64,000 nt of DNA from an uncultured Bacteroidales bacterium (GTDB lineage: Bacteria; Bacteroidota; Bacteroidia; Bacteroidales; P3). The number at the start of each line of letters is the position of its first letter. Within the stretch, counting starts at the first letter, position 1. Below, in pieces: positions 2,691 through 62,760 of this stretch. Below the pieces are notes generated by a model. That model saw nothing but the letters and a program-made list of their open reading frames with translations, did not search any database and was not told where the DNA came from. The position numbers and the translations under genes are program-made. Where the stretch lies: the NCBI GenBank assembly GCA_905236645.1, contig CAJOMZ010000013.1, positions 3,315 to 67,314 on the forward strand, read 5' to 3'.

Positions 2691-3860
2691 ATGAACATAT
2701 TAGCTTCAGGTGGCTTTATGGACTTTATGTCGACGCAGCTGGTGCAGTTCCTGCATTACACCGGTTTCGCCAACGTAGAGTGGGGCCACATTATAATGAT
2801 TTTTATAGGCTTGATATTCATCTTTTTGGGTATCAAGAAGGAGTTTGAGCCTCTGCTCCTCGTTCCTATCGGATTCGGTATGATTGTCGGTAACATTCCT
2901 TTCTATCCTGGATTGAAGATAGGTATCTATGAGGATGGCTCGGTGCTGCATATCCTGTACCACGGTGTGCAGAACGGCTGGTACCCGCCGCTGATATTCC
3001 TCGGCATCGGTGCAATGACCGATTTCTCGGCAATGCTCAGCAATCCTAAGCTGATGCTTATCGGCGCTGCCGCCCAGGTCGGTATCTTCGCTGCCTATAT
3101 GGGTGCCCTGGCTCTGGGCTTTGCTCCCAACGAGGCTGGCGCTATCGGCATCATCGGCGGTGCCGACGGCCCGACGGCTATCTTCCTGTCGTCGCAGCTG
3201 GCTCCCGACCTGATGGGTGCAATCGCAGTGTCGGCATACTCTTATATGGCTTTGGTGCCTGTGATTCAGCCTCCTATTATGCGTCTGCTCACCACCAAGA
3301 AAGAACGTACCATCCGTATGCGTCCGCCGCGTCAGGTGACGAAGCTCGAGAAGATCTCGTTCCCCATCCTGGGCCTCATCTTCTGTGCTTTCATCGTCCC
3401 CTCGGGTCTGCCGCTGCTGGGTATGCTGTTCTTCGGCAACCTGCTGAAAGAGTGCGGCGTTACCAAGCGCTTGTCGGAGGTGGCCTCCAACGCCATCGTC
3501 AATATCTGCACGCTGCTTATCGGCATCACTGTGGGTGCCTCGACCCAGGCAACGACCTTCCTTACAGGTCGTTCGGTGCTGATTTTCGCCCTTGGTGCCG
3601 GTTCGTTTATCGTTGCCACGTTCTTTGGCGTTCTTTTCGTCAAGTTTATGAACCTCTTCCTGAAAGAAGGCAACAAGATCAACCCGCTTATTGGTAACTC
3701 CGGTGTGTCGGCAGTGCCCGACGCCGCACGTGTTTCTAACAACGTCGGACTTGAGTACGACAAGACCAACTATCTGCTCCAGCACGCTATGGGTCCCAAT
3801 GTGGCCGGCGTGGTGGGTTCGGCAGTGGCCGCAGGTATCCTGCTGGCATTCCTGCACTAA
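2691..3860 (+). CDS. mmdB: Na+-translocating decarboxylase beta subunit (OadB/MmdB family)
   Basis: A polytopic membrane protein of 389 aa with OadB-like segments (GIGAMTDF, IIGGADGPTAIF, NPLIGNSGVSAVP). It is the last gene of the mmd cluster. Confidence 0.9.
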   Translation: MNILASGGFMDFMSTQLVQFLHYTGFANVEWGHIIMIFIGLIFIFLGIKKEFEPLLLVPIGFGMIVGNIPFYPGLKIGIYEDGSVLHILYHGVQNGWYPPLIFLGIGAMTDFSAMLSNPKLMLIGAAAQVGIFAAYMGALALGFAPNEAGAIGIIGGADGPTAIFLSSQLAPDLMGAIAVSAYSYMALVPVIQPPIMRLLTTKKERTIRMRPPRQVTKLEKISFPILGLIFCAFIVPSGLPLLGMLFFGNLLKECGVTKRLSEVASNAIVNICTLLIGITVGASTQATTFLTGRSVLIFALGAGSFIVATFFGVLFVKFMNLFLKEGNKINPLIGNSGVSAVPDAARVSNNVGLEYDKTNYLLQHAMGPNVAGVVGSAVAAGILLAFLH

Positions 3861-3890
3861 TAAATGCCGATTCCGGAATTTAATACCAAA

Positions 3891-3917
3891 GTCCCGACCT
3901 CGGTCGGGACTTTGTTG
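3891..3917 (+). terminator. Rho-independent terminator of the mmd operon
   Basis: The stem is gtcccgac-ctcg-gtcgggac, followed by tttgttgt, 30 nt after the mmdB stop. Confidence 0.7.
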
Positions 3918-4190
3918 TATAAGGCCATTGGAAAAATATTTTGCCGTATCGGGAAAAGTTGTAATAATATTTGTGATGCAGTATCGGTTGCGACGGATTT
4001 GTAATCCGTCGCAATTATTTATAAGTATTTGCAATCTGTAAGGTCGGCACTTGGTTATTTTTGCGGATTGCAAATCCGAGACAACAGACACCCTTTTTGT
4101 TTAAACGTCTGAAAACCAATAAAATGATAAAATATTAGCGTCGTATCATAACTGCTTGTTCTTTAGGTCTTTACAGGGTCATCTTCGTTC

Positions 4191-4278
4191 GTTGTCCAGT
4201 TGTTGTCCAGTTGTTGTCCAGTTGTTGTCCAGTCATTGACTGGACAACAACTGGACAACAACTGGACAACGACTGGAC
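4191..4278. repeat. Long near-perfect palindrome made of 11-nt tandem units (GTTGTCCAGTT x4, then inverted x4)
   Basis: Hand pairing around centre T4236 shows 4194-4235 complementary to 4237-4278, with 41 Watson-Crick pairs and 1 G-T. Confidence 0.9.
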
Positions 4279-4491
4279 GGTGTTGGTACGGTGGAATTAG
4301 CTGGATGGTATTTGTGGGTTGGCGTGATGGTGTTTGGGAATTGGCGGGGTTGTGTTTGGGAATTAGCTGGGTGGTGTTTGGGGATCGGTGAGGAGGGGCG
4401 ACGGGCGTGCGGCACCATTTTCTGTGAACAGTGTGGTTGAAAAAAGAGCGGTGTTTGTGGCGATAAGTTGTGTTATTTAATTTTTATTTCG

Positions 4492-4499
4492 TATTTTTG
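4492..4499 (+). promoter_or_regulatory. Bacteroidetes-type -7 promoter box upstream of valS
   Basis: TATTTTTG matches the TAnnTTTG consensus, 90 nt upstream of the valS ATG. Confidence 0.5.
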
Positions 4500-4588
4500 C
4501 AGTTTGAACCGATGGACCCTTTGGGGTTTCTGTTGGTGTATTGAATTGAATAGTAATTGATTGAGTAGAATAATAATATTTATATATA

Positions 4589-7291
4589 ATGGAAATTGCA
4601 TCGAAATACAATCCTCGTGCCGTTGAAGAGAAGTGGTACGAATTTTGGTTGGAGAAAAAGTTGTTTCATTCCGAGCCCGACCGCCGTCGCCCTTACACGG
4701 TGGTTATTCCGCCGCCCAATGTGACGGGCGTGCTGCATATGGGCCATATGCTGAACAATACGATACAGGATGTGTTGGTGCGCCGCGCGCGAATGATGGG
4801 CAAGAATGCCTGCTGGGTTCCGGGAACGGACCACGCCAGCATCTCGACCGAGGCAAAGGTGGTGAAGATGCTTGCCGAGCGCGGTATCAACAAGCGCGAC
4901 CTGAGCCGCGACGAGTATATGAAGTATGCCTGGGAGTGGAAGGAGAAGTATGGCGGCATCATCCTGAAGCAGTTGCGCAAGCTTGGCGCCAGCTGCGACT
5001 GGGACCGCACGGCCTTTACGATGGACGACATCCGCTATGAGAGTGTGATTCAGGTGTTTGTCGATCTCTACAACAAGGGCTTGATTTATCGCGGCGCCCG
5101 TATGGTGAACTGGGACCCGCAGGCGCTGACGGCGGTGAGCGACGAGGAGGTGATATACAAGGAGAGCCACGGCAAGCTGTTCTATTTGAAGTACTTCGTT
5201 GAGAACGCAGAACGGGGGACGGAGAACGGAGAGCTGGGCAAGGACTATATCGTCGTGGCCACCACGCGCCCCGAGACCATTATGGGCGACACGGCGGTGT
5301 GCGTGCATCCCGAGGACGAGCGCTACCAGTGGCTGAAGGGCAAAAGGGTCGTTGTGCCCGGCGTAGGCCGCGTGGTGCCCATCATTATGGACGAGTATGT
5401 AGACCGCGAGTTCGGTACGGGTGCCCTCAAGATTACGCCTGCCCACGACATCAACGACTACAATCTGGGTATGAAATACAGCCTTGACAGCATCGATATC
5501 TTCAACGACAACGGCACTCTCAACGACAACGGCGGCAAGTATGCCGGTATGGACCGCTTTGCCTGCCGCAAGGCCATTATGAAGGACCTTGAGGAGGCTG
5601 GCCTTGTCGAGAAGATTGAGGACTATGTGAACAAGGTGGGCCACTCGGAGCGTACCGACGCCGTGATTGAGCCCAAGCTCAGCACGCAGTGGTTTGTGAA
5701 GATGAGCGACATCGCCAAGAAAGCGCTCGAGGTCGTTGAGGACGGCAAGATCAAGTTCCATCCCGACAAGTTCAGAAACACCTACCGCCACTGGCTTGAG
5801 AACATCAAGGACTGGTGCATCAGCCGTCAGCTGTGGTGGGGCCACCGCATTCCGGCGTGGTATTTTGAACGGATAACGGAAAGCGGAGAACGGAGAACGG
5901 AGGTGGTTGTGGCACTCAACGAGGAGGAGGCCCGCAAGCTGGCCGCCGAGAAGTACGGCTACACCGGCGAACTGCGTCAGGACGAGGATGTGCTCGACAC
6001 CTGGTTCAGCAGCTGGCTGTGGCCTATCAGCCTCTTCGACGGCATCCGCAACCCCGACAACGAGGAGATAAAGTATTACTATCCCACCGACGACTTGATT
6101 ACGGCTCCCGACATCATCTTCTTCTGGGTGGCTCGTATGATTATGGCCGGCGAGGAATACAGAGGCGAGGTGCCTTTCAAGAACGTCTACTTCACCGGTA
6201 TAGTGCGCGACAAGCTGGGCCGCAAGATGAGCAAGAGCCTCGGCAATTCGCCCGACCCCATCGAGCTGATAGAGAAATACGGCGCCGACGGCGTGCGTAT
6301 GGGTATGCTGCTGACGGCTCCCGCAGGCAACGACCTGCCGTTTGACGAGAGCATCTGCGAGCAGGGCCGCAATTTCGCCAACAAGATTTGGAACGCCCTG
6401 CGCCTGGTGAAAGGCTGGACGGTGGAAACGGAGAACGGAGAACGGAGACCCGAGAACGAGGTGGCAGTGGAATGGATGGAGCAGAGGATGGCCTGCGTGC
6501 TGGAGCAGATAGAGAAAGACTTTGACCAGTACCGCCTGAGCGAGGCACTGATGAATACCTACAAACTGGTGTGGGACGACTTCTGCTCGTGGTATCTGGA
6601 GATGGTGAAGCCCGCCTACGGCACGCCTATCGACAAGGAGACCTACGACGCGACCATCAGCATCTTCGAGCGTCTGATGTGTATGCTGCATCCGTTTATG
6701 CCTTTTGTCACCGAGGAAATATGGCACCTGCTGCAGGATGCCGACAGCGAGGCCAAGGCAGAGATGATTGCCCAGAGCAGCATTATGATGCAGCGTATGC
6801 CGGCAAGCGTGTTCTACGACCAGCGTATGCTCGACGACTGCACGACGGCCCGCGACGTCATTGCCGGAGTGCGCAACCTGCGCAACAGCCGGGGCCTGTC
6901 GCCCAAAGAGGCGTTGGAGCTCTTCGTGGTGTGCGGCGACGGCAAGCGTATGAACAGCCGCTTTGACGGTATTGTCAAGAAACTGGCCAACGTGAGCGAC
7001 ATCAAGTATGTCGACACCAAGGTTGAGGGTGCCGTGAGCTTTATGATCGGCACGACAGAGTTCTTTGTGCCTATGAGCCAGAATGTCGACGTGGAGGCCG
7101 AGAAGAAGAAACTGGAGGAGGAACTGCGGTATGCCGAGGGTTTCCTGGCCAGCGTGATGAAGAAGCTTGGCAACGAGAAGTTTGTCAACGGTGCGCCCGA
7201 GAAAGTGGTCGCCGTCGAGCGTCAGAAGAAAGCCGACGCCGAGCAGAAGATAGCGGCGCTGAAGGCACAGATTGAGAATCTGAAGGCTTAA
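4589..7291 (+). CDS. valS: Valine--tRNA ligase
   Basis: It has the class I HIGH-type motif [18 protein letters not shown], the [10 protein letters not shown] editing-domain signature and a C-terminal coiled coil. Length is 900 aa. Confidence 0.97.
5203..5234 (+). repeat. Heptamer array 1 inside valS (gaacgca gaacggg ggacgga gaacgga ...)
   Basis: Tandem imperfect GAACGGA units that encode [11 protein letters not shown]. Confidence 0.7.
5867..5901 (+). repeat. Heptamer array 2 inside valS (gaacgga taacgga aagcgga gaacgga gaacgga)
   Basis: Five contiguous 7-nt units (35 nt) that encode [12 protein letters not shown]. Confidence 0.8.
6425..6460 (+). repeat. Heptamer array 3 inside valS (gaaacgga gaacgga gaacgga gacccga gaacgag)
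   Basis: Five units (36 nt) that encode [12 protein letters not shown]. Confidence 0.8.
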
Positions 7292-16736: not shown

Positions 16737-16878
16737 ATGCCCACTCCTGCCCGAAACGCATAACACAGGGAATGGGCAGCTGTCGGTATACTCCATCCTC
16801 TCATTTGGCGACCAAAAAAGTTGGTCTGTCACTCTGCATCCGATGCACTAAATTCCACCCGACTTTTTGCTAAATTCT

Positions 16879-16952
16879 TACCAAAGTTTACTGGAGTGAA
16901 CTTTGGTAGAACTTTGGTAAAACTTTGAGTAAACTTTGGTAGGAATTTGGTA
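16879..16952. repeat. 11-nt phased array: one inverted copy (taccaaagtt), then five direct copies of (g/a)aactttggta
   Basis: The units lie at 16898, 16909, 16920, 16931 and 16942, exactly 11 nt apart. The inverted copy is at 16879-16888. Confidence 0.85.
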
Positions 16953-17138
16953 TATGGAAATCAGGGAGTTGTAAAAGGGCAAAATCGGCCCTTTTACGAG
17001 TTCTTGCAACTTTTTTGACAAGCCTCGTAATAAGTTGGTTTTAAGTATGATAGGTGTAAAAAAGCCCTGTTTTCGGTGGATTTTGCAATTTCACCGATTT
17101 TTGCCTGGTTTCAGGGACTTTGAAAATGTGGATTCGGG

Positions 17139-22906: not shown

Positions 22907-24886
<1,980 letters not shown>

Positions 24887-24902: not shown

Positions 24903-25104
24903 CTAAAAAAACTTCGTTTTTGCCCCTTTTCGGCTGCCAATTTTTATCAACATTTTGTGGAAAAATAATATTCCGGGTCTATTGTGTTGAACTACAGATG
25001 CTTGGTGCGCTTTGCGCAGGCTCTGTCGCCCCCTGTTTGCACCCCGGAAACGGCGTTGCGGAAGCCCCGTTTCCTAACCGCTTCATCCTCAGTCCTTCAA
25101 GGGA

Positions 25105-25214
25105 CCAACTCCGTCCGTTGTACAATATATGTACAATAGTTGTACAATACTTGTACAATTGGTAAACGTACAAATATTGTACAAGTATTGTACATATATT
25201 GCGGACGGAGTTGG
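25105..25214. repeat. 110-nt hairpin element: 13-bp GC clamp enclosing 4 + 3 inverted 11-nt TTGTACAATAN units
   Basis: The clamp is ccaactccgtccg (25105-25117) against cggacggagttgg (25202-25214). Units lie at 25118, 25129, 25140 and 25151, with inverted units at 25169, 25180 and 25191. Confidence 0.85.
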
Positions 25215-25302
25215 TAGGGCGAAATCGTGGCGAAAAAACGGTCCGTCGACGGTCGGTGGACAATATTTTCGGTGCAAGGGACGTTATATTGAAAATTTTT
25301 TG

Positions 25303-25332: not shown

Positions 25333-26265
25333 ATGTTGAAGAAGCTGTCGATGTTGCTGATATTGAGTGCTTTCTTCGCAACGGCTCTGGGTCAGGAGTT
25401 CCGTTGCGGTGTTGTTGTTAACTATCAGAAACTGCAGAACACAACGCAGCAGTATGAGTCGGGCGACGTCAAAATCTTTGAGACGATGAAGCGCACTATC
25501 GAGGATTTTATCAACAACCGCCATTGGACAAACCTTGAGTTTGAGCAGGTTGAGCGCATCGACTGCTCCATCAACCTCATCCTCACGCAGCGCTCGTCGG
25601 CCACCGACTTCACCGCCCAGCTGTCGATCCAGTTGCGCCGGCCTGTCTACAATTCCAACTACACCACCGGCCTCTTCAACTATATGGAGGGCGCCAACGA
25701 CCTGGTGTTCTCGTTCAATGAGAGCCAGCCGCTCGAGTTCGACCCGAACTCTTACTTCGACAATCTCTCGTCGACTCTGGCCTACTACTGCTACATTATG
25801 CTGGGTCTCTACTTCGACTCGTACGGCCCCAACGGAGGCGAACCGTTCTTTGAAATGGCACGCACCATTGCACAGACCACCAAGGCTGCCAACAGCAACC
25901 TAAAAGGCTGGGGGCCAAGCGATAGCCAGAAGGCGCGCTACTGGTTTATGGAGAACCACACCAACTCGGCATACGAGGCGCTGCACAGCGTCTACTATTA
26001 CTACTACCGCCTTGGGCTCGATATGATGACCAAGGACCAGCCCACGGCGCGCCGCAACATCATCGAAGCGATGCGCTATCTGCTGCAACTGCACAAGAAA
26101 CGTTCCAACCTGCTGTCGGTCACCCAGTTCCTCGACGTTAACATTGCGGAGATAGTCTCTATCTTCACTCCGGCGCCGGCTGACGAGCAGAAGGAGATTT
26201 ACGACATCATCAAGGAGATTAGTCCTATCAATGTTACAAAACTGAAGGACTGGAATGTTAAATAG
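25333..26265 (+). CDS. DUF4835 / PorD-like protein (type IX secretion associated)
   Basis: It has a signal peptide and an N-terminal pattern (EFRCGVVVNYQKLQ...IFETMKRTIEDFINNRHWT) that I recognise as DUF4835-like. Called from memory only. Confidence 0.55.
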   Translation: MLKKLSMLLILSAFFATALGQEFRCGVVVNYQKLQNTTQQYESGDVKIFETMKRTIEDFINNRHWTNLEFEQVERIDCSINLILTQRSSATDFTAQLSIQLRRPVYNSNYTTGLFNYMEGANDLVFSFNESQPLEFDPNSYFDNLSSTLAYYCYIMLGLYFDSYGPNGGEPFFEMARTIAQTTKAANSNLKGWGPSDSQKARYWFMENHTNSAYEALHSVYYYYYRLGLDMMTKDQPTARRNIIEAMRYLLQLHKKRSNLLSVTQFLDVNIAEIVSIFTPAPADEQKEIYDIIKEISPINVTKLKDWNVK

Positions 26266-40173: not shown

Positions 40174-40323
40174 ATTGTATAAAGGTTATGGTTTAAAAAA
40201 ACAATACTTTCTTGTTGTTGATTGGTTGACAATAGGTTGCGGTGGTATGTGCTTTGAAAAATTATCTTAAAGGGGTCTTTCTTATACTTCTCCAAGCTTA
40301 ACAAACCAAACCCGAGTCATCAT

Positions 40324-40405
40324 TTCAACGATACTTCAACGATACTTCGACCATATTTCAACGATTATATATCGTTGAAATATAGTCGAAGTATCGTTGC
40401 AATGT
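40324..40405. repeat. Hairpin element built from 11-nt TTCAACGATAC units (4 direct, about 3 inverted)
   Basis: Units lie at 40324, 40335, 40346 and 40357. 40337-40365 pairs with 40371-40399 with one mismatch around the loop tatat. Confidence 0.85.
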
Positions 40406-40454
40406 GGTTGATGTATATTTGAAGGGGCCAGGTTGGTATATTCCTTCAGTATGT

Positions 40455-60264: not shown

Positions 60265-60283
60265 ATAAGGTTTGATGGTCAAA

Positions 60284-60330
60284 GGGGTTAAAGGTTTTAG
60301 GGTTAAAAGGGTTTAGGGTTTAAGGGATGG
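60284..60330 (+). repeat. G-tract word repeat (GGGGTTAAAGG TTTTAGGG TTAAAAGGG TTTAGGG TTTAAGGG)
   Basis: Read directly from an 84-nt intergenic spacer. It has four GGG runs with loops of 6, 4 and 5 nt. Confidence 0.7.
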
Positions 60331-62726: not shown

Positions 62727-62760
62727 CGTTCGTTGTCCAGTTGTTGTCCAGTTGTTGTTA
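62727..62760. repeat. Partial copy (about 2.5 units) of the GTTGTCCAGTT array, including its left flank
   Basis: 62727-62758 is identical to 4186-4217 (32 of 32 nt). It lies 70-100 nt upstream of the WaaL/Wzy-like start codon. Confidence 0.9.

Follow-up and report, generated by a model that had tools for sequence, protein, structure and literature searches.

A dispersed intergenic palindrome assembled from phased 11-nt units in uncultured rumen Bacteroidales

The intergenic region between an mmdB-like gene and valS, on a contig of an uncultured Bacteroidales bacterium (CAJOMZ010000013.1, of which a stretch of 64,000 nt, hereafter the window, was analysed), contains a long and nearly perfect palindrome whose arms are tandem arrays of an 11-nt unit. 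This raises the question of whether the palindrome serves the genes on either side of it, for instance in terminating the mmd operon or in the expression of valS, or whether it has a distribution and a history of its own. A first-pass annotation had placed it between the mmd operon and valS, with the implication that it is specific to this locus. It proved instead to be one member of a multi-copy, non-coding, intergenic family of palindromic repeats of uncultured rumen Bacteroidales, which has been copied to many unrelated intergenic sites and is found in every gene context.

Dispersal, anatomy and turnover of the repeat family

The arms initially described around T4236 were recovered by inverted-repeat search (4194-4235 and 4237-4278, 42 nt each, 98% complementary and 1 nt apart), with the same 41 Watson-Crick pairs and one G-T pair. 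Tandem Repeats Finder placed 3.9 copies of GTTGTCCAGTT in the left arm (4191-4233, 100% matches) and 3.6 copies of its complement in the right arm (4239-4278, 96% matches); the original count of four units per arm holds for the left arm, whereas the right arm of the window has three full units and a truncated fourth. Folded as single-stranded DNA, the palindrome reaches -50.8 kcal/mol (z = -12.9), a stability equalled by none of 200 shuffled sequences, and the 11-mer GTTGTCCAGTT is over-represented in the window, with 11 matches at no more than one mismatch where 1.2 would be expected. In an independent assembly of this strain from ENA (L031), the 728-nt mmdB-valS spacer is identical to that of the window except for one 7-nt indel: ACAACGA is present in L031 and missing from the window at 4276/4277. 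The L031 copy has complete 4+4 units and 49-nt arms, and relative to it the window copy carries this small internal deletion of 7 nt. Since an independent assembly matches the intergenic region, the palindrome is not an assembly artefact. Nor is it a one-off product of slippage: unit number does vary slightly, as in this indel and in occasional 3+4, 4+3 and 3+5 variants, but independent assemblies and dozens of loci share the architecture and the flanks, and further copies were found both in the window and in relatives. Artefact and slippage are thereby refuted.

An exact scan with two units (22 nt), covering one genome per species, returned 30 loci, of which 23 lie on many contigs of a single rumen metagenome-assembled genome (MAG), RUG13410 (‘uncultured Bacteroidetes’), and the others in six further rumen Bacteroidales or Prevotellaceae MAGs. 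A relaxed scan for three GTTGTCC cores at 11-nt spacing yielded additional copies in rumen metagenomes, and the window itself has a second, truncated copy (Table 1). The search of genome and clade that the first-pass annotation had proposed thus gave at least 23 loci in RUG13410 besides those in other MAGs, in metagenomes and in the window. Among the 47 palindromic copies collected, 39 keep the 4+4 arrangement, with 3+4 or 4+3 units in seven others and 3+5 in the last; an additional copy with an internal partial duplication (L028) lies outside the collecting pattern. All copies are intergenic, and rough gene calls place 7 of them between divergent, 5 between convergent and 10 between tandem gene pairs. 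No recurrent neighbouring protein family emerged from an all-versus-all comparison of flanking open reading frames (ORFs), which returned only spurious ORFs crossing the element, and blastn against plasmid and cultured-phage collections gave no match to it. Several contigs start or end in the element (L019, L051, L060, L082, L332-L334), as expected because repeats break assemblies.

In a full copy, a complementary foot stands on each side of two inverted four-unit 11-bp arrays arranged around an 11-nt centre. The outward pairs of feet include CAACACCG/CGGTGTTG, CTTCGG/CCGAAG and CTCCG/CGGAG. A conserved A-module of 45-100 nt (e.g. CCCGAAAAACAGGCATTCATTACCAGCAAGTTACAAGACC) is often present on one side and a B-module, GGTG..GTGAAAAACGG or its complement, on the other, and conservation ends about 30 nt past the right foot. 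A-modules were seen only beside palindromes, with no free-standing ones; that of the window matches the flank of another copy (L017) with 75% identity over 97 nt. The logo of the unit, from 176 units in 22 non-redundant copies, is T-Y-GTTGTCC-R-N: eight of the 11 positions never or almost never vary, not one change occurs in 1232 core positions, and variation is confined to three positions. Compared pairwise, copies are on average 91% identical within the palindrome, against 61% for the A-module, 55% for the B-module and 31% for the sequence farther out. Over 32 distinct copies, 93.9% of the cells in the arms are paired and both-sided changes occur in 19 of 52 pairs, values reached in none of 500 shuffles, and the second spacer is unpaired in 12-17 of the 32.

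Of the functions first suggested for the palindrome, an array of phased protein-binding sites on one face of the DNA would fit these data best, given the invariant core in all 176 units, the 11-nt phase and the prevalence of the 4+4 arrangement. The suggestion of a transcribed hairpin found no such support. A double-stranded RNA of this kind, 45-50 bp long, would act as small RNA or RNase III substrate, with the 11-nt unit matching the helical repeat of A-form RNA. The fold is very stable, the arms covary, and a -7-like motif containing TTTG lies some 15-20 nt beyond the foot in a number of copies, such as TATTTTTG in L004. But these promoter-like motifs are inconsistent among copies, mismatches in the arms have no strand asymmetry (46 G-T versus 33 A-C), and no conserved secondary structure extends outside the palindrome. 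Rfam 15 gives only sub-threshold matches to generic miRNA precursors, with nothing at gathering thresholds in the whole window. The 7-mer core, moreover, has undergone no compensatory change, though a purely structural constraint would permit it, and a hairpin RNA is considered very unlikely.

Copies persist at orthologous sites, with the element retained in all of seven orthologous locus groups, and undergo rapid concerted internal change, gain and loss of units, and swapping of variants between arms. L018 and L086, whose flanks are 92-98% identical, differ in most unit spacers and in the centre, and L024 and L155 differ in one whole spacer (GCTC versus AGTT). L001 and L012 have the same odd spacer in opposite arms, which suggests that inversion or template switching may take place within the palindrome. 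Together with L023, these two copies form an orthologous trio (L001 3037-3266, L012 3591-3823, L023 4292-4524) situated about 115 nt upstream of a cobalamin riboswitch, with flanks 96-99.5% identical across the three MAGs, each of which represents a separate species; the link of this one group to the riboswitch looks incidental.

In L124, a composite palindrome of a second kind, 600 nt long and made of tandem units of about 43 nt around a CCCCTCTCCGAGAGGGG hairpin, lies beside the element and is missing from the orthologous copy L006; the same kind flanks the element in L028. Such larger composite palindromes combine tandem units of 34-43 nt (TTGATGGTGCGACACACCCC...) with a CCCCTCTCCGAGAGGGG hairpin in the middle and inverted units opposite. 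They were located at 3126-3470 and 3780-4103 of L028 and at about 8850-9430 of L124, and a fragment of one (GGGGTGTGTCGCAC) also occurs within the L047 insertion described below.

The mmdB-valS locus as a strain-variable island

MmdB homologues were uninformative as a route to an empty site, the genes downstream of mmdB being different between those genomes, and empty and filled sites were compared through ValS homologues at 97% identity. In six contigs (L044-L046 and L048-L050), mmdB is followed by valS after a spacer of 251 nt, in which terminator, valS promoter and leader are those of the window and neither palindrome nor 22-nt array is present; homology with the window restarts at about 4454. 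The canonical terminator that the first-pass annotation had placed upstream of the palindrome was found as a hairpin (3887-3914) with a T-run, and it is kept in these six relatives, with changes in loop and stem. This agrees with the original view that the palindrome is not needed to terminate the mmd operon. The interval of 214 nt from the end of the palindrome to the valS -7 box had also been given correctly (TAnnTTTG is the -7 motif of Bacteroidetes). Because six close contigs manage without it, the element is dispensable at this locus for mmd termination and valS expression, and the copy sits in a strain-variable intergenic island that ends some 35 nt upstream from the -7 box of valS. A role specific to mmd or valS is at odds with the location of the palindrome within an insertion that these closely related contigs lack.

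A function as bidirectional terminator or as insulator separating valS from the mmd operon would be consistent with a long GC-containing hairpin having same-strand genes on both sides, and some copies do lie right after gene-specific terminators (e.g. L018 and L027). However, a conserved terminator already stands 270 nt upstream, no T-run follows position 4281, the terminator scan did not call the palindrome, relatives manage without it, and seven copies are located between divergent genes. We regard this explanation as highly improbable.

The closely related contig L047 clarifies the composition of the island. Its ValS protein is identical to that of L046 and L048-L050, yet its spacer measures 2.5 kb and contains small ORFs. 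At the right end of this insertion is a variant element, TTGTTGTCCGC x4, TTTAAAA, GCGGACAACAA x4, with GCTT spacers and a centre unlike that of the window; one of its units reads GATGTCC and is answered by GGACATC in the opposite arm. To its right follow the same right flank and the same end (...GGTTGAAAAAAGAGCGGTG) joined to the valS promoter. The insertion of the window shares both ends with that of L047, without the ORF-bearing interior. The G/T-rich 22-nt unit to the right of the palindrome is present 4.1 times in the window and about 1.5 times in L047 and L051, then followed by an 11-nt array, AGTAAGAGGGA x5-6; copy number therefore differs among strains, and these 22-nt and 11-nt arrays behave as fast-evolving minisatellites. 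The left part of the insertion has small hairpins (3988-4014 and 4027-4075) and, at the left end of the variable island, the remnant of a promoter-like cassette (about 3936-3975). This cassette, TTTTTGCCATATYGGGAAAAAGTTTGTATTTTTGCA, with TTTG and TAnnTTTG motifs, recurs at several unrelated places in these genomes, i.e. at 3936-3975 of the window, at about 600-650 and about 1000-1050 of L047, and at about 3900 of L038.

Table 1. Coordinates of the palindrome, its surroundings and related arrays in the window.
Feature	Position	Strand	Basis or remark
mmdB-like gene, sodium-translocating decarboxylase beta subunit	2691..3860	+	ORF; Pfam OAD_beta on the identical L031 protein; source names; upstream context, outside the element
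mmd operon intrinsic terminator, 13-nt arms and T-rich tail	3887..3921	+	Inverted repeat 3887-3914
Left part of strain-variable insertion	3922..4085	.	Missing in empty-site contigs; shared with ends of the L047 2.5-kb insertion
Left flank module, long A-module variant ending ...TTTACAGGGTCATCTTCG	4086..4185	+	Alignment with A-modules of other copies
Palindrome	4186-4281	.	Inverted-repeat search, Tandem Repeats Finder, folding, comparison with L031
Left arm, four T-Y-GTTGTCC-R-N units	4191-4234		
Palindrome centre, AGTCATTGACT			
Right arm, three complete inverted units, the fourth truncated	4238-4278		
Right foot GGTGTTGGTA and G/T-rich array, 11/22-nt period	4279..4395	+	Tandem Repeats Finder 4293-4382, 22 nt x 4.1
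Right-terminal segment of insertion, B-module-like end GGTTGAAAAAAGAGCGGTG at 4435-4453	4396..4453	+	Alignment
valS promoter and leader	4454..4588	+	Conserved in relatives with or without insertion
valS -7 box, TATTTTTG	4492-4499	+	
valS, valine-tRNA ligase	4589..7291	+	Downstream context
Asymmetric, partly palindromic 11-nt array, GAACTTTGGTA x5 after one or two inverted units (TACCAAAGTT)	16870-16955		
TGTACA-core sibling	25060..25241 (palindrome 25105-25215)	+	Outer frame as in the GTTGTCC element
TTCAACG-core palindrome, TTCAACGATAC x4, TATATA, about three inverted units	40321..40411	.	Tandem Repeats Finder among others
Truncated second family copy, 2.5 units GTTGTCCAGTT	62727..62758	+	Left foot CCGTTC shared with the palindrome; no inverted arm

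Sibling palindromes and the comparison with phage iterons

Other palindromes of the window are built on the same plan from different 11-nt units. The sibling with TGTACA cores is flanked on one side by a gyrB-like gene (22907-24865, minus strand) and on the other by a DUF4835 gene (25333-26265), in a divergent promoter region, and its frame consists of an A-like module, a foot (ACCAACTCCGTCCG / CGGACGGAGTTGGT) and then GGTAGGGCG...GAAAAAACGG; its A-module resembles that of a GTTGTCC copy (L006). Three contigs whose DUF4835 protein is 82% identical (L335-L337) have the sibling at the orthologous site, with all units changed in concert from TGTACAATA to TGTACAGTA in both arms, and with a different centre. 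In relatives at 97% identity the contigs break at the sibling, and in relatives at 65% identity no TGTACA-type element is present at the gyrB-like/DUF4835 site. The TTCAACG-core palindrome lies between two minus-strand genes. A degenerate G/T-rich tandem repeat (60267-60326, AAGGTTTGAGGGTCAAAAGGGTTA, 24 nt x 2.5, sub-periods of 7 and 16 nt) was noted immediately downstream of a glycosyltransferase-like gene. The TGTACA units were also considered as LexA operators; this was rejected, the published motifs of Bacteroidetes LexA being GGA-N5-TCC and CTAA-N5-TTAG (PMC8565304).

The siblings bear on the possibility that the 4+4 units form an operator or scaffold for a DNA-binding protein of the host, such as a global regulator, a nucleoid-organising protein or a topology factor, so that the element would be kept for its usefulness and a mobile-element route would be merely the way in which the sites spread. 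The core is indeed invariant while the flanks diverge, unit number and helical phase are fixed, copies are kept in seven orthologous locus groups, and the sibling beside the DUF4835 gene is retained in relatives at 82% protein identity, its units having changed in concert on both arms. Copies are not tied to any gene class or orientation, however, that at valS is missing from six closely related contigs, and spacers, centres and arm types are swapped freely between orthologous copies. Furthermore, unit families differ between loci of one genome, which would call for several cognate proteins, and the sibling is absent at the same site in the more distant relatives. A host-functional array thus seems rather unlikely.

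Since the TGTACA sibling combines the common frame with other units, the palindromes form a clade-specific superfamily in which unit families are interchangeable within a conserved frame. The cores differ between families (GTTGTCC, TGTACA, TTCAACG and others). In a more far-reaching version, this would be a previously undescribed superfamily of phased-iteron palindromes with 4+4 inverted units, each family being the cognate array of a different sequence-specific DNA-binding protein; the arrays, as a system encoded by the host or by the element, would possibly serve to capture or exploit the replication initiators of phages, as origin decoys or hijackers, or else form a genome-wide nucleoprotein scaffold. 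The thought of initiator capture stems from the resemblance of the units to phage iterons in period, in core-plus-spacer design, in copy number and sometimes in the exact 11-mer. We consider this version quite unlikely.

The resemblance itself came from the relaxed scan, which also matched 90 IMG/VR contigs and many non-rumen metagenome contigs with GTTGTCC-core 11-nt arrays. The IMG/VR arrays are unidirectional and nearly all lie within ORFs of 230-340 amino acids. Four representative ORFs have their PHROG matches in the DnaD-like helicase loader and the replication initiation O-like families, one of them also in ‘replisome organizer’, and none of the representatives has a match in Pfam. Iterons inside the initiator gene are the classic arrangement of an origin. 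In many phage genes of replisome-organiser or DnaD-like type (IMG/VR L172-L261 and L268-L315), origin iterons occupy the linker-coding part, as four to six 11-nt units beside AT-rich repeats of 8-11 nt, and encode low-complexity peptides such as DNQRTTNGQP.

A direct link, by which the palindromes would mimic phage origin iterons and titrate replisome organisers as decoys, or would be relics or hijackers of origins, could also draw on 11-mers that are identical in phage arrays and host palindromes (e.g. GTTGTCCGCTT x4 and GTTGTCCGTTT x3), and on TTCAACG arrays, which are phage iterons in 48 IMG/VR contigs. The shared 7-mer is nevertheless no evidence of such a link, because the search was conditioned on it. 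A permuted 7-mer still gave 17 iteron-like viral matches and TGTACA/TTGTACA gave 6, so that 11-nt iterons are generic and shared spacers may be due to chance; similarity to phage iterons was rejected as evidence on these grounds. The phage arrays, moreover, are unidirectional, lie within genes and are accompanied by AT-rich repeats, whereas the host elements are inverted, intergenic and without an AT-rich unwinding region. We regard a link to phage replication iterons as highly improbable. What the comparison does show is that sequence-specific proteins of initiator type bind arrays of this sort, made of four to five 11-bp units each having a core of about 7 bp.

The nature of the element and its nearest analogues

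In our opinion, the element is probably a selfish repeat resembling REPINs (paired repetitive extragenic palindromes, REPs) or foldback MITEs (miniature transposable elements with inverted repeats), with the phased 7-mers as putative recognition sites of a trans-acting protein. The invariant 7-mer, presented once per helical turn, would be the site recognised by such a DNA-binding protein, for which the likeliest candidate would be the transposase or recombinase responsible for copying the element, possibly an HUH-Y1 enzyme of the REP-associated kind that acts on the hairpin once extruded. The element would then be no regulator of mmd or valS. We count as support for a selfish repeat that Bacteroidetes have TnpA(REP)-like Y1 subclasses of their own, which are tied to ‘atypical’ secondary structures (PMC6006769; PMC3116915).

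Several observations weigh against a selfish repeat of this kind. A six-frame search for the Y1-HUH motif (HUH...Y) in the window and in L001-L171, i.e. in about 1 Mb or about 8 kb per copy, found none, and no transposase-like gene recurs beside copies among the neighbouring ORFs. Target-site duplications were sought as direct repeats of 3-9 nt, and no pair of offsets up to 110 nt from the arrays showed enrichment, the boundaries of the element being inexact. The only empty site, that between mmdB and valS, differs from the filled one by a composite region of at least 530 nt, and is not a clean empty site for the element alone. Divergence among the flank modules far exceeds that of the palindrome, which is unexpected if whole elements had recently been copied from one master; it could also be explained by a preferred type of target into which the palindrome inserts, or by selection acting on the core alone. 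In some copies the arms have mixed spacers (AGTT versus GATT or GTTT), giving a two-base mismatch in every unit, and perfect complementarity of the hairpin is therefore not strictly required. Finally, the TGTACA sibling is kept at 82% protein identity, as an element useful to the host would be.

In addition, no insertion sequence (IS) or transposase with the ends of the element was found at any of the loci examined. Two candidate marks of transposition were considered and rejected: the conserved TTAC of the A-module, as an IS608-type cleavage mark, is not conserved in the sibling elements, and the TA beside some feet, as a mariner-type duplication, is part of the conserved B-module and missing in many copies.

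Among known systems, REPIN-RAYT is the closest working analogue of the probable selfish repeat. REPs and REPINs are likewise non-coding and strictly extragenic, occur in tens of copies per genome, form a long hairpin from two inverted halves, undergo compensatory changes in their arms and persist vertically for long at orthologous sites; they lack target-site duplications, and none was enriched near the present arrays. Their halves, however, are imperfect palindromes of 20-40 nt with a GT[AG]G or CGTC tag, whereas the arms described here are tandem 11-mers totalling 44-49 nt, and the feet (CCGTTCG, CTTCGGTCG or CACTGGTCG) contain neither GTAG nor CGTC. No RAYT was found within the roughly 8 kb around each copy, and the siblings keep the frame with other units, which also sets them apart from REPINs.

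BrickBuilt (MITEPgRS) of Porphyromonas gingivalis (PMC4596501) similarly has a Bacteroidales host, 10-20 or more intergenic copies, no coding capacity, short tandem repeats (22-23 nt) of variable number, reminiscent of the 22-nt array beside the palindrome of the window and its shorter counterpart in L047, and a tendency to nest or cluster with other repeats. In BrickBuilt, the tandem repeats lie between IS5-like terminal inverted repeats, whereas in the window element the tandem units are themselves the inverted repeat. As in MITEs generally, the element is small, non-coding, multi-copy and polymorphic in presence at mmdB-valS, there as part of a larger indel; the searches turned up no IS-like terminal repeats, parent IS or target-site duplications for it. 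The architecture of long inverted arms made of short tandem repeats with little between them, and the high structural dynamism, recall the Foldback (FB) and Galileo elements (PMC3573991), but these are eukaryotic and far larger, with target-site duplications and known transposases, and the likeness is one of architecture only. Membership in the REPIN-RAYT, foldback or MITE families is not established, because neither GTAG/CGTC tag, RAYT, IS-like terminal repeats nor target-site duplication was found.

Iterons have the same period of 11 bp, or one helical turn, the same design of a core of about 7 bp and a spacer of about 4 bp, and the same four to five contiguous copies, and the phage iterons encountered here share the GTTGTCC core, which was the search criterion. 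Further examples with 11-bp iterons are the parC repeats of plasmid R1 and the bind locus of pMV158 RepB. But iterons are direct repeats at or inside an initiator gene, in one or few sets per replicon, whereas the element is inverted and intergenic, occupies at least 23 sites per genome, and has no adjacent rep or par gene and no AT-rich block. It differs from CRISPR arrays as well, its units being contiguous, with 4-nt spacers from a small vocabulary, and inverted about a centre.

The element is thus a dispersed extragenic palindrome, or non-autonomous element, of unusual iteron-built design, and more general than the first reading of the locus had suggested. To our knowledge, repeat families have been poorly catalogued in Bacteroidales, and nearly all that is known of REP/REPIN biology comes from Proteobacteria. 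In the present family, the arms of a bacterial dispersed repeat are arrays of helically phased, sequence-invariant units, in a foldback-like design. The combination of a conserved frame and interchangeable unit families leads to the prediction of a set of cognate proteins for DNA binding or mobilisation. Demonstration of such proteins, or of a phage connection, would make the family of greater interest still. Metagenome assemblies break at these elements, which also mark intergenic islands that vary between strains and evolve concertedly themselves, properties that may lend themselves to strain typing of rumen Bacteroidales.

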